From a virus (Duplodnaviria; Caudoviricetes), in the IMG/VR virus record IMGVR_UViG_3300035321_000146, positions 1 to 44,999 of that record: a stretch of 44,999 nucleotides of DNA. One strand, given 5' to 3'. Below, piece by piece: positions 5,656 to 33,836 of the stretch (its first letter is position 1; every line of letters begins with the position of its first letter). The notes under the pieces are model-generated. The model saw only the letters and a list, made by a program, of their open reading frames with translations, was not told the origin of the DNA and did not search any database. The position numbers were made by a program, and so were the translations under genes.

Positions 5656-7218
5656 TTATTTTCTAAGATTAATTGCCGCATTGTTTACCGCCATCCCATT
5701 TTTAACTGTACCGTCTTGTGCTACTCCAAACTTGTTAAAGAGCATCCTATTTCCACTACCAAATAAACCATTCGTTACATTATAAGTGCTAGTAGTAGGT
5801 TCGTAAATAACATCTTTAGAATCTGCTTGAATAGCCGTCCTTAGTTGATCCATATTCCATTTGGGATTAATTTGTAAATACAAACTAGACAGTCCGGCTA
5901 CCTGCGGACTTGCCATACTAGTTCCACCTATGTTAACTTGTTTGTAATTACTATCTTTATGATAAGCGACAGCATTCATTACGTTTGTGTTACTACATGC
6001 ACTCATTATATTGTGTCCAGGCGCCCATATATTTACACCTGGTCCGCTAAGGCTTGTAGATCTTTTTTCATCTGCGGTTCCGTTTAGTGAAGTATCTGTA
6101 ATACTGCCTACTATAAATGCTTGATCGTCGAAAGGACTGCTACCTCTATGGTAAGGTGTAGTTACGCTAGAAAATCCTTGCACTGTACCTGTTACAGTAT
6201 TATTATAATCATCACCACCTGCAACATCAGCTTTTAAATAATGGTTTCCAGATGCTATGCAAACTATAATTCCTGCATCTATCATTTCTTGGATTTGCGT
6301 ATCTACTGATGATAAACGGATGCTGGCCTTCCAATTGCCGAAAACCCATGGGCCAACGCCGTAGTCTCTATATACAGTTGAATCATTTGAGTAACCCCAT
6401 CCATTGCCTCGATAGTTTCCATTAGTGACTTGCGTATATGTCCTTGTATATCCCCAACTCATATTTATAATAGTTGGTCTGCCATTTGTCTTTGCATTGT
6501 GCCATGCAATTATAGTATCTGTACAGTTGTCTAAACTAATACCTCCGTTAGGGTCAGAGCTACCTTCAAGTCCATCTAATTTTTGTGAATAAATGTGAGC
6601 ATTTTTACCCCAGCCGTATGTTTTACCAGCAGCTATACCTGCAACATGAGTGCCATGTCCATGATAATCTGAATAGTGTCCGCTAGGCATTGAACCACTG
6701 ACACCACTTGCTGTAAACCAATTAATTTGCTGTAGTCTAGAAGTTCCATCTGCATCTTCCCATTCTGGATGGTTTGCTTCTATACCGCTATCCTGTATAA
6801 CAATATCAACTCCTGTGCCATCAAGCACATAATCATAACCACCTGGCGCAGTATTTCCGTTGCCATAAATGTTAGTTGCTTCGTTTACTCTGCGTAAGCC
6901 CCAGTTTACATAAGAACCACTATCGCTTGTTGTTTGAGTAAAGTCTCCATCTTGGGTAGCAGTTCTTTCTAGTGTAATATCGTCTCTATTATACACAGGT
7001 TCCTCAACACCGTATATCCTATCGTCTGCTTCTAGTGCTGTAGCTTCTTCTTCTGTAAGCATAAAATGCGTTTGACGTTTAGATACAGGACGTTGGTTTG
7101 CAATGTCTACTGCTCTATTTGGTATCGGTCCTGAACCAGATGATGCAGTTAGTTCGGCTTCTACCTGTTCAAGGTCAACACCTCTATTTACTGATACAAC
7201 GTATTCTTTTTCGCTCAT
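5656..7218 (-). CDS. Subtilisin-like serine protease (peptidase S8), probably virion-associated
   Basis: Catalytic triad motifs IQDSG, HGTHVAG and GTSMASP; oxyanion Asn in ASGN; N-terminal propeptide-like region. Confidence 0.9.
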   Translation of the reverse strand: MSEKEYVVSVNRGVDLEQVEAELTASSGSGPIPNRAVDIANQRPVSKRQTHFMLTEEEATALEADDRIYGVEEPVYNRDDITLERTATQDGDFTQTTSDSGSYVNWGLRRVNEATNIYGNGNTAPGGYDYVLDGTGVDIVIQDSGIEANHPEWEDADGTSRLQQINWFTASGVSGSMPSGHYSDYHGHGTHVAGIAAGKTYGWGKNAHIYSQKLDGLEGSSDPNGGISLDNCTDTIIAWHNAKTNGRPTIINMSWGYTRTYTQVTNGNYRGNGWGYSNDSTVYRDYGVGPWVFGNWKASIRLSSVDTQIQEMIDAGIIVCIASGNHYLKADVAGGDDYNNTVTGTVQGFSSVTTPYHRGSSPFDDQAFIVGSITDTSLNGTADEKRSTSLSGPGVNIWAPGHNIMSACSNTNVMNAVAYHKDSNYKQVNIGGTSMASPQVAGLSSLYLQINPKWNMDQLRTAIQADSKDVIYEPTTSTYNVTNGLFGSGNRMLFNKFGVAQDGTVKNGMAVNNAAINLRK

Positions 7219-28628: not shown

Positions 28629-28657
28629 ATTATAGTATCTATTTACTCACTTGTCAA
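28629..28657 (-). promoter_or_regulatory. Consensus sigma70 promoter TTGACA-N17-TATAAT
   Basis: Perfect consensus immediately downstream of tRNA-Trp copy 1. Confidence 0.8.
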
Positions 28658-28666
28658 CCTTTTATT

Positions 28667-28751
28667 TGGCACCGGTGGCGAGATTCGAACTCGCTAATCC
28701 TAAGAACTGGTTTTGGAGACCAGCGTACCTCTCCTACTGTACCGCACCGGC
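28667..28751 (-). tRNA. tRNA-Trp(CCA), copy 1, non-canonical (C8, G1-U72, 12-nt variable arm)
   Basis: Cloverleaf GCCGGTG/CACCGGT, GTAC/GTAC, CTGGT-CTCCAAA-ACCAG, GCGAG-TTCGAAT-CTCGC; G73; encoded CCA. Confidence 0.85.
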
Positions 28752-28762
28752 GTAAAACTCAT

Positions 28763-28797
28763 AAAAAAAGCCCCTAATGAATTAACACTAGGGGCTT
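28763..28797 (-). terminator. Intrinsic terminator (attenuator) AAGCCCCTAGTG-TTAATT-CATTAGGGGCTT with U-tract
   Basis: 12-bp stem ending in a 7-U run, 11 nt before the tRNA 5' end. Confidence 0.88.
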
Positions 28798-28840
28798 GCT
28801 TAAAATAACTTTTTAAAAAGTCACATTCAAGACGTACCCC
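28791..28840 (-). promoter_or_regulatory. Antiterminator hairpin competing with the terminator
   Basis: GGGGU/GCCCC, CUUGAA/UUUAAG and inner GUGACUUU/AAAGUUAU pairings; sequesters the GCCCC arm of the terminator. Confidence 0.75.
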
Positions 28841-28889
28841 GGTTATTCGGTGGCCAACAAGTAATATTTGTTGTACTATTCTTGAGCAT
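28827..28889 (-). CDS. Leader peptide MLKNSTTNITCWPPNNRGTS (20 aa)
   Basis: AAGGA Shine-Dalgarno 8 nt before ATG; single TGG at codon 12; stop codon inside the 5' arm of the antiterminator. Confidence 0.75.
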   Translation of the reverse strand: MLKNSTTNITCWPPNNRGTS

Positions 28890-28920
28890 GTTAAAAATCC
28901 TTATTCCTTATTATGTGTAT

Positions 28921-28949
28921 ATAATACTACATTTATTTATCGTTGTCAA
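28921..28949 (-). promoter_or_regulatory. sigma70 promoter TTGACA-N17-TATTAT for the leader/tRNA-Trp unit
   Basis: Near-perfect consensus. Confidence 0.8.
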
Positions 28950-29106
28950 CATCTTTTTTGTCTGCTCTGCCTTTTTTCCCGCAGTGTGGACAATGAAAAG
29001 TTGTTCGTTCAATGCAATACTTGTCTTCCATAGTAGCGAATGTAAACCAGCCCTTGCATGAAGCACAGGTTAAATGCCATATGATTTCTTTCACTGCATT
29101 AAACAT
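28933..29106 (-). CDS. Small Zn-ribbon protein, 57 aa (CASC...CPHC)
   Basis: Hand-translated MFNAVKEIIWHLTCASCKGW...FHCPHCGKK; TAAATA upstream. Confidence 0.7.
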   Translation of the reverse strand: MFNAVKEIIWHLTCASCKGWFTFATMEDKYCIERTTFHCPHCGKKGRADKKDVDNDK

Positions 29107-30091: not shown

Positions 30092-30094
30092 AAT

Positions 30095-30190
30095 TGGCTT
30101 TCCAGCTACCTTAGGAGTCTAATCATATCGGATTAAACTTTACGCTAGGACAGCTTTTAACTGAGAGATCCTAGCAACTAAGACTGGAAA
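30095..30190 (-). ncRNA. Structured 96-nt RNA with a tRNA-like acceptor stem and 3' CCA but no cloverleaf
   Basis: Stems TTTCCAG/CTGGAAA followed by G-CCA, CTTAG/CTAAG, GCTAGGA/TCCTAGC and AGTTTAATC/GATTAGACT; fills the gap between two tRNAs. Confidence 0.75.
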
Positions 30191-30192
30191 CT

Positions 30193-30277
30193 TGGCACAG
30201 GTGGCGAGATTCGAACTCGCTGAGCTAACGCACTGGTTTTGGAGACCAGCATACCTCTCCAACTGTATCGCACCTGC
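30193..30277 (-). tRNA. tRNA-Trp(CCA), copy 2, non-canonical (C8, G1-U72, 12-nt variable arm)
   Basis: Same architecture as copy 1, with compensatory changes. Confidence 0.85.
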
Positions 30278-30290
30278 GTATTTGTTATTA

Positions 30291-30380
30291 TGGCGGACAG
30301 CCAGGGATTCGAACCCTGGGAGGACTTTCACCCTCGTCGGTTTAGTAGACCGGTGCTTTCGACCACTCAGCCAGCTGCCC
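30291..30380 (-). tRNA. tRNA-Ser with the unusual anticodon ACT (A34)
   Basis: Class II body with variable arm GAGGGT-GAAA-GTCCTC; G73; loop CT-ACT-AA; CCA. Confidence 0.88.
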
Positions 30381-33056: not shown

Positions 33057-33244
33057 TGTAACGGTATCCCTTTATTTGCATCAATTCCCCAATATTTTCT
33101 ACAGATGTTTAAAATTACTTCAGGAACATCATCTTCATCTTCTCCGTCAGGAATGAATAAGCCTTTTAACTCGCCGTTTTTACCTATTATAAGGCCCCAA
33201 TCACCATCTGTGAGAGCGTCTTCGAATTCAATCTTCTCTTTCAT
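33053..33244 (-). CDS. Hypothetical acidic protein
   Basis: GAGG Shine-Dalgarno before ATG 33244. Confidence 0.65.
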   Translation of the reverse strand: MKEKIEFEDALTDGDWGLIIGKNGELKGLFIPDGEDEDDVPEVILNICRKYWGIDANKGIPLH

Positions 33245-33836
33245 CCTCTTGCACCTTCTTTGCAATTGTTTTATAAATGCCAGGGTTGACTCTTAAGACA
33301 TGAGGCATCATTTCATGCCTAATATAATTTCTATTATAGCACAGATCTGAATTGCTGTCATCCTCAATATACGGAACACCTTTTAGATCTGCCCATAATT
33401 GCAAATCACGTTTGCGATTAAGTCTAAACGGACGTATCACATAGTTTCTGCGATAAGGAACAATCTTACCTGTACCATGTAAACTGCTAAACAACCAAGT
33501 TTCTACACAGTCGTCTAAATGATGGGCCGTAATTACAGGATGGTCTGTAAAGCGACTTAGAAACTTGTATCTATGCTCTCTCCAATAGTCCTCTCTACTA
33601 CGTCCTAAAGGCAGTGTTCCGTTAATTTGATCAGAATGCATTTCAAGTCGGTTTGATTTACAATACTGCTTTACAAAATGTCTTGCCTTATCAGCGTGAC
33701 CTGTGCCATGATGGAAATGCAATACCCGTACATCATGATTCCGTTTCAAGAAATCAATAGCAACCATACTATCAACACCACCACTTACTGCAATATAAAT
33801 CTGTCGAGGAAGTTTACCTTGTAATTTTATCATCAC
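33228..33836 (-). CDS. tilS: tRNA(Ile)-lysidine synthetase-like protein, catalytic PP-loop domain only
   Basis: AVSGGVDSM, HFHHG, R..RY.F, TAHHLDD..ET, IRP and DDSN...YNRNYIRH motifs. Confidence 0.85.
   Translation of the reverse strand: MMIKLQGKLPRQIYIAVSGGVDSMVAIDFLKRNHDVRVLHFHHGTGHADKARHFVKQYCKSNRLEMHSDQINGTLPLGRSREDYWREHRYKFLSRFTDHPVITAHHLDDCVETWLFSSLHGTGKIVPYRRNYVIRPFRLNRKRDLQLWADLKGVPYIEDDSNSDLCYNRNYIRHEMMPHVLRVNPGIYKTIAKKVQEDERED

Follow-up and report, generated by a model that had tools for sequence, protein, structure and literature searches.

It has long been an open question why phages carry tRNA genes (PMC10264068, available text), and the locus considered here raises it in a particular form: what is the role of a predicted intrinsic terminator, itself preceded by a short Trp-containing reading frame, placed directly in front of a phage tRNA-Trp gene? 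The locus belongs to a 45-kb virus record with standard code use, analysed as a single stretch of 44,999 nucleotides (the window). The source phage is marine, and close DNA relatives of the window are present in seawater datasets. At the protein level its nearest cultured matches are distant: they belong to jumbo and T4-like phages, with Pseudomonas jumbo phages of the PA5oct/Paride group (66% identity for the ClpP of the window) and Sinorhizobium phiN3 as the closest. Auxiliary genes found within 13200-43432 encode an Fe-S assembly protein, UvdE, a PTPS-family protein, ClpP, an FkbM methyltransferase and a CHASE2-adenylate cyclase; a subtilase gene lies at 5656-7218, and 33228-33836 encodes a PP-loop protein, a member of a family that includes tRNA-modifying enzymes.

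The sequence-only reading of this locus had described a promoter, a Shine-Dalgarno (SD) sequence, a 20-codon leader ORF with one TGG (28856-28854), a terminator and a tRNA-Trp gene starting 11 nt later (28751-28667), in that order on the minus strand, and each part was found at its place (Table 1), together with a second AAGGA at 28909-28905. Equally confirmed was the separate promoter that it had assigned to the next gene. No terminator-like site was listed between position 28667, the end of the tRNA-Trp gene, and this metallophosphoesterase gene, so that read-through may add to its expression; the genes downstream of the cassette differ among relatives. Consensus scans over 10 kb gave matches at chance level, both for promoters (34 versus 33.7 expected) and for terminators (8 versus 7.0), and the fold of the leader RNA beat 200 of 200 shuffles (z -4.1). 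It is the conservation of the cassette in relatives, described below, that rules out chance as an explanation. Contigs from four of 24 metatranscriptome runs, which derive mostly from relatives or from host tRNAs, give neither a transcript start or end nor the strand; one covers 28726-28824, thereby crossing the terminator, and may be DNA.

Table 1. Features of the tRNA-Trp locus and its surroundings (positions in the window)
Feature	Position	Strand	Remarks
57-aa Cys-rich ORF	28933-29106	-	two CxxC motifs; no Pfam match; 3' end overlaps the cassette promoter
Sigma70-type promoter TTGACA-17-TATTAT (predicted)	28921..28949	-	11/12 consensus
Shine-Dalgarno AAGGA	28898..28902	-	8 nt before ATG
Leader ORF, 20 codons, MLKNSTTNITCWPPNNRGTS	28827..28889	-	translation inferred
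Segment 1 (start codon, UCAAGA, GUAC)	28873..28891	-	pairs with 28837-28823 as the predicted 1:2 helix
Control codons Cys11-Trp12-Pro13	28851..28859	-	last stall codons predicted to leave segment 2 free
Segment 2, GGGGU, 5' arm of predicted antiterminator	28836..28840	-	begins 13 nt after the Trp codon
Inner hairpin CUUGAA..GUGACUUU / AAAGUUAU..UUUAAG	28798..28833	-	places segment 2 next to segment 3; can form in either state
Segment 3, GCCCC	28795-28791	-	within the 5' arm of the terminator
Intrinsic terminator (predicted)	28763..28797	-	12-bp stem 28797-28768 and seven T at 28769-28763
Gated tRNA-Trp(CCA)	28667..28751	-	85 nt; CCA end encoded; G73, G1-U72, C8; 10-nt D loop; 12-nt variable region
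Separate promoter of metallophosphoesterase gene	28629..28657	-	perfect consensus, 12/12
Metallophosphoesterase gene	28602-28093	-	next gene after tRNA-Trp
Second tRNA-Trp(CCA)	30193..30277	-	member of the main tRNA cluster, 13 nt after tRNA-Ser

The window contains seven tRNA genes, two of which are tRNA-Trp(CCA). The second copy has neither a leader nor a terminator directly upstream. Both are identical at 74 of 85 nt and share their length, the C at position 8, the 10-nt D loop and the 12-nt variable region, which in relatives resembles a tetraloop closed by a 2-bp stem (GC-GUAA-GC, UC-GCAA-GA); neither gene was picked up by Rfam at its gathering score. The presence of this second copy bears on the idea, part of the sequence-only reading, that the phage would supply a replacement for lost tRNA-Trp: the gated copy is not the only replacement available, and it would rather be a top-up. 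The anticodon loop CUCCAAA, found in both copies, is common among the phage tRNA-Trp genes retrieved, and evasion of nucleases by a loop change is therefore not evident. A role of this odd tRNA in UGA recoding was considered and found unsupported: TGA serves as the stop codon of 8 of 35 long ORFs, and translation with table 11 leaves the frames intact. A scan of the genome collection for long-armed tRNA-Trp gave 120 loci, mostly chance matches, with five tRNA-Trp genes and none of these with a terminator directly upstream. The main tRNA cluster shows two further peculiarities. A tRNA-Ser at 30291-30380 (minus strand), also seen in loci L002 and L003, has the anticodon ACT, with A at the wobble position, which is unusual in bacteria; AGT is the commonest Ser codon of the phage (340/764). 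Between tRNA-Trp and tRNA-Gly, at 30092-30192 (minus strand), lies a structured 100-nt non-tRNA RNA (z -4.7) without an Rfam match, which is skipped in one metatranscriptome contig, so that some relatives probably lack it.

The sequence-only reading had proposed to look in related phages for a short ORF with TGG and a terminator upstream of tRNA-Trp. Loci were collected with a pattern for this tRNA type, which took nothing from the leader and matched at least 120 metagenome loci and 75 viral loci; removal of duplicates gave at least 127 distinct loci, of which 15 with less than 250 nt upstream were dropped and 112 kept. Among the matches listed, 22 of the latter are tRNA-Trp genes inside clusters and 90 are cluster-leading or solitary, and 47 of these 90 have a terminator within 130 nt. 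A leader ORF ends 23-41 nt before the terminator in 46 of the 47 (again, among the matches listed). The rule for choosing this ORF relied on SD and length and did not use Trp; Trp is nonetheless encoded in all 46 leaders among the matches listed, representing 39 distinct peptides, versus one of 46 in each of the other two reading frames, and an SD-like motif is found in 42 of these 46 leaders. As for the 43 terminator-less loci among the matches listed, many have a promoter directly before the tRNA, and in one (L523) the terminator tail had been missed by the finder and was seen by eye. The cassette is thus conserved, and Trp was never absent from it among the matches listed.

The converse selection led to the same association. 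A terminator-only pattern retrieved at least 120 loci, or 117 distinct ones with the window; among the matches listed, a tRNA lies no more than 150 nt from 25 of these 117 terminators, window included. Every one of the 25 is preceded by an SD-led Trp leader, and in 24 of them tRNA-Trp comes first, while inspection by eye found the family leader in none of the other 92 terminators among the matches listed. The 57-aa Cys-rich ORF provides a further vantage point, because in relatives it identifies this tRNA-Trp locus whether or not the cassette is present, with a TTGAC-type promoter at the same place in either case. A search with this ORF yielded 30 distinct matches: 13 show the order ORF-promoter-cassette-tRNA, six show ORF-promoter-tRNA without the cassette, and the remaining 11 have no tRNA-Trp nearby or are cut. 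The existence at one locus of 13 cases with the whole cassette and six without it indicates that leader and terminator are gained or lost together. Among cultured phages, BLAST of the cassette against those in GenBank gave only short matches, mostly at tRNA genes, and neither leader nor terminator was seen in front of eight plus-strand tRNA positions of Paride and phiN3. Some relatives carry additional RNAs at this place. Structured RNAs of 60-90 nt lie between terminator and tRNA-Trp in L010 (2394-2483, plus strand) and L418 (520-596, minus strand), with similar inserted RNAs in L011, L071, L110, L405 and L451; two of the inserted RNAs were folded (z -3.5 and -3.9), and by their position they would fall under the same switch. 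In L058 (593-753, plus strand), two tandem tRNA-Trp genes, one standard and one long-armed, stand behind one Trp leader and terminator.

The structural features were examined in a family set of 54 distinct leaders, for which Trp was a condition of inclusion (one unrelated row was removed). These leaders are 15-23 codons long, and their peptides are highly variable apart from Trp. The distance from the start to the G tract stays in one frame in 49 of 54, and 10-19 nt separate the Trp codon from the downstream G tract in all 54. In an alignment of 53, the terminator shows double-sided changes in 6 of its 12 pairs, with 24 cells versus 5.3 in shuffles, a contrast inflated by the relatedness of the family members. 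The third pairing of the sequence-only reading, between the beginning and the end of the leader (the 1:2 helix), covaries among relatives: UCAAGA/UCUUGA, as found in the window, is replaced by UUAAGA/UCUUAA where the leader stops at TAA, and L011 has UUAGAA/UUCUAA. For this helix, the two segments of one leader average -13.9 kcal/mol versus -10.1 when segments are swapped among the 54 family leaders, and for the whole 2:3 arm the values are -17.5 versus -15.7, both differences being likewise inflated by relatedness. Regarding the antiterminator, the same reading had joined two pairings. GGGGU/GCCCC is predicted to compete with the terminator, but CUUGAA/UUUAAG belongs to an inner hairpin that coexists with it, and consequently only the former would be a competitor. 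The inner hairpin has double-sided changes in 5 of 11 counted pairs, although the count for the whole structure is not above shuffles. The antiterminator core consists of five pairs, paired in 96% of cells and with zero double-sided changes in the family alignment; since one C-run must pair in two helices, no covariation is expected in this core, yet it gives no positive proof either.

A ribosome model, in which the mask extended 10 nt past the A-site codon and the RNA ended before the 3' arm of the terminator, was applied to the same leaders. With Trp in the A site the antiterminator forms in 53 of 54 members, versus 8 of 54 with the ribosome at the stop codon, and in 42 of 54 the permissive stretch ends at Trp or at one of the three codons after it. 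For the window, the modelled probability of the antiterminator stays at 1.0 from codon 2 up to and including Pro13 and falls to 0.2-0.4 for later codons, which places its Trp codon at the 3' edge of the predicted stall window. With E. coli trpL as control, the same script gives a peak at the second Trp and the Arg codon, and in these scans, under the assumed footprint, a ribosome at the control codon frees segment 2 and one at the stop covers it. When no ribosome is present, the model predicts the antiterminator in 50 of 54 members versus values of 0.06-0.07 in E. coli trp. In the partial RNA, the 2:3 pairing is more stable than 1:2 (-24.5 versus -21.0 kcal/mol), although the 1:2 helix forms earlier in transcription, and the fold combining the 1:2 helix with the terminator is stable. 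Once the RNA is full-length, the terminator of the window is favoured by 9.8 kcal/mol even when a ribosome occupies the Trp codon, and its equilibrium margin has a family mean of 7.3, with 4.7 kcal/mol in the E. coli trp control. Equilibrium folding was therefore rejected as proof of switching, the terminator winning in the window, the family and E. coli trp alike, and switching must be kinetic. The upper terminator stem is able to form beside the antiterminator and could act as a toehold.

These observations can be integrated in a model, probably correct on the evidence of comparative sequence and predicted folding, in which the cassette controls its tRNA gene by ribosome-mediated transcription attenuation. 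Briefly, a ribosome waiting at codons 2-13 would, according to the folding prediction, leave GGGGU free, and this would capture GCCCC before the 3' arm of the terminator exists. The bottom pairs of the terminator would then be unavailable and the polymerase would read into tRNA-Trp. A ribosome that reaches the last codons would instead cover GGGGU and let the terminator form, and once transcription had terminated, the start codon would be hidden in the 1:2 helix. The signal would be a shortage of usable aminoacyl-tRNA, and the loop one of negative feedback. The core of the sequence-only reading, a leader-peptide attenuator whose output is the tRNA, gains comparative support on four counts: Trp occurs in all 46 leaders that were selected by other features, among the matches listed; its codon falls at the 3' edge of the predicted stall window; the 1:2 helix covaries; and at one locus the cassette is either wholly there or wholly missing.

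The nature of the signal merits a closer look. It had been proposed that the leader senses the decoding of UGG; Trp is indeed invariant, but sensing of Trp only is unlikely, because other codons are permissive as well and track the downstream tRNAs. In the model, all codons from codon 2 to Trp+1 in the leader of the window permit the antiterminator, and Trp is encoded there by a single codon rather than a tandem. Among family members, tRNA-Cys (34/54) and tRNA-Pro (21) frequently come after tRNA-Trp, and Cys occurs in 51 of 54 stall windows. Downstream non-Trp tRNAs have their own amino acid in the stall window in 88 of 103 cases versus a null of 68.5 (sd 3.3, maximum 81), a test whose significance is overstated by the relatedness of the members within which it permutes, and codons after the stall window show no excess match (33 versus 29.9). 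In tRNA lists that are incomplete, being drawn from flanks of at least 130 nt, Gln, Ile, Tyr, Ser and Cys tRNAs are never found behind a family leader lacking that residue; the tRNAs present without their amino acid in the stall window are Pro (4), Met (5), Gly (2) and Lys (1). The leader is thus probably multivalent rather than Trp-only, and across the family the cassette would read Trp always, and Cys, Pro, Gln, Ile, Tyr or Ser according to the tRNAs carried. Locus L418 is instructive in this regard, as it encodes the leader peptide of the window ahead of tRNAs for Trp, Pro, Cys, Glu and Arg. Given that tRNA-Trp alone follows in the window, the Cys and Pro codons of its leader probably remain from an operon that was once longer, and they may still trip the switch. 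An extra tRNA cannot cure a lack of tryptophan, which would make tRNA loss, be it by cleavage, decay or heavy demand, a more sensible trigger than starvation.

If leaders list the tRNAs behind them, the same should be visible beyond this family. An anticodon-blind scan for any G-ended terminator followed by a T-loop gave at least 127 viral loci; among the matches listed, 115 hold a tRNA, and 90 distinct tRNAs have a strict terminator upstream. An ATG ORF of 10-45 codons, ending 15-45 nt before the terminator, precedes 79 of these 90 among the matches listed, and the 79 leaders form 62 clusters that share less than 40% identity. The peptide includes the amino acid of its first tRNA in 61 of the 62 clusters listed, versus a null of 42.1 and a maximum of 53 in 20,000 permutations, and a stricter clustering gave 50 of 51. 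This amino acid makes up 10.0% of leader residues versus 4.7%, later tRNAs are matched too (9.3% versus 4.9%, n=48), and shifted frames show no match to the tRNAs, all among the matches listed, where 17 amino acids are seen as first tRNA. Within the same listed matches, 54 of 62 leaders are switchable in the model, cognate codons occupy 315 of 1093 positions inside the stall window versus 57 of 481 after it, and a weak swap control gave antiterminators in 123 of 184 swapped leader/terminator combinations versus 53 of 62 own ones. No bias towards codons read by the downstream anticodon was found among the matches listed (31/73 versus 31.6 expected). One locus of this broad class, compared with cultured phages, gave no match. 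Cellular genomes (301 of one bacterial phylum and 401 of one class, 702 in all) gave 15 pattern matches, nine of them at tRNAs; the five tRNA cases with a detected terminator had no leader, a small sample among 702 genomes that does not amount to absence.

Individual members of this class present some variations. A Leu-rich leader stands before four tRNA-Leu genes (L355), a Lys-rich one before three tRNA-Lys genes (L326), and Tyr/Lys leaders before Tyr and Lys tRNAs (L270, L314); several cassettes occur on one contig in L256-L258 and L328-L330. Leaders before tRNA-Pro(UGG) use mostly CCG, CCT and CCC and not CCA, possibly slow codons chosen for sensitivity. Considering the class as a whole, we lean, on balance, towards the notion that many unrelated phages keep tRNA genes behind programmable codon sensors, whose leaders list the amino acids of the tRNAs behind them, in order to detect which tRNAs the host cut or ran short of and to make exactly those. 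The cassette of the window would then be the Trp/Cys/Pro version, and the leaders a readable record of the tRNAs limiting or attacked in infection.

Three other explanations have to be weighed against attenuation by the decoding of particular codons. The leader could operate as a ribosome-driven attenuator that reads a general slowing of translation (antibiotics, stalling at polyproline or by the nascent peptide, loss of coupling), with Trp being incidental. This would agree with the permissiveness of all codons 2-13 in the model, with the Pro-Pro or Cys-Pro that follows Trp in many members, with the presence of Thr in 53 of 54 stall windows, though tRNA-Thr follows in one, and with the absence of a match to anticodons at the codon level. 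However, many leaders lack Pro-Pro and none of those listed lacks Trp, the Lys/Thr/Asn start is explained by the 1:2 pairing, and the leader residues follow the tRNA cargo both in the family and across the 62 dissimilar leaders among the matches listed, so that we regard a sensor of general slowing as unlikely.

This last observation is left unexplained by the remaining two explanations as well. One of them takes the hairpin for a leaky, unregulated terminator that ends an upstream transcript and damps a strong promoter, with the ORF setting a fixed read-through. No terminator-like site is listed on the minus strand from the main tRNA cluster to 28797, the terminator is dominant at equilibrium and the core antiterminator shows no covariation, all of which would fit; nevertheless, a fixed damper has no need for an in-frame Trp that never varies and sits where the ribosome footprint ends, nor for leader amino acids that match the tRNAs behind, and appears very improbable. 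Alternatively, the tRNA gene might be a passenger and the real product either the 150-nt RNA left by termination or the peptide, with an action in trans as in the case of Sinorhizobium rnTrpL. The stable fold of 1:2 helix plus terminator would suit such an RNA, and action in trans has a precedent in rnTrpL, as described in the available text of PMC6614838. Yet the family cassette was seen only before tRNA genes (25/25 in the terminator-selected set, among the matches listed) and its peptide varies widely apart from Trp. A product acting in trans is moreover compatible with attenuation and not exclusive of it; as a replacement for attenuation, it is hardly to be expected.

Where does codon-dependent attenuation of a tRNA gene stand among known systems? 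T-box riboswitches sense the charging of one tRNA and switch a terminator, binding the tRNA directly and without a leader ORF. They share with the window a terminator switch tied to the status of a tRNA, but the window uses a leader ORF, and no T-box match was found in it by Rfam. Multivalent attenuators such as those of thr and ilvGMEDA read several amino acids with one leader, and attenuators are also found at genes for aminoacyl-tRNA synthetases, namely E. coli pheST and the auxiliary trpRS1 of Streptomyces. As in the window, the synthetase attenuators place a component of translation under the control of how well its own codon is read; the product of these systems is, however, the supply of an amino acid or the charging enzyme, and here it is the tRNA itself. 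The window does not conform to the Trp_leader type of Rfam, having one TGG and a tRNA target, and only tRNAs matched at gathering scores. A close likeness is to E. coli trpL, other amino-acid operon attenuators and, as far as the available text of PMC6614838 describes it, S. meliloti trpE(G), which likewise have a short Trp leader ORF and an intrinsic terminator before the gene, and whose three mutually exclusive pairings have predicted counterparts in the window. E. coli trpL and the window both show a stall-dependent antiterminator in the mask simulation and both favour the terminator at equilibrium. In contrast to the trpL type, the window gates a phage-encoded tRNA and not an enzyme, has one Trp codon in place of a tandem, is permissive over the whole first half of the leader and has an untranslated default that is not clearly off.

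The inducible supply of spare tRNAs has a parallel in the trn operon of Anabaena PCC 7120, a tRNA array whose genes are turned on when translation is impaired, as stated in the available text of PMC8421152. The control proposed there is a promoter repressor that is not codon-specific, as opposed to the attenuator predicted here, and the terms 'attenuat', 'leader peptide' and 'terminator' are absent from that text. Phage tRNAs have been reported to counter host tRNA-cleaving defences by means of anticodon-loop changes (PMC10264068, available text), which gives a reason to top up a tRNA in infection; 'attenuat', 'promoter' and 'Trp' do not appear in the same text. The main text of a genome-wide attenuator survey contains neither 'tRNA gene' nor 'phage' (PMC2965389), and no account of attenuators of tRNA genes was found in titles and abstract starts of the open literature, whose supplementary motif catalogues could hold such elements.

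If the model is true, an attenuator that reads the codon of its own tRNA would mean that the phage treats this tRNA as an on-demand supply, and attenuation would extend from enzymes of amino-acid metabolism and synthetases to the feedback control of a tRNA gene. The cassette, of only 150 nt, would constitute a compact, codon-specific sensor of tRNA status. The rival ideas about why phages carry tRNA genes, that is, codon compensation, replacement after attack by host nucleases and starvation, would then be reduced to the question of which insult opens the switch.
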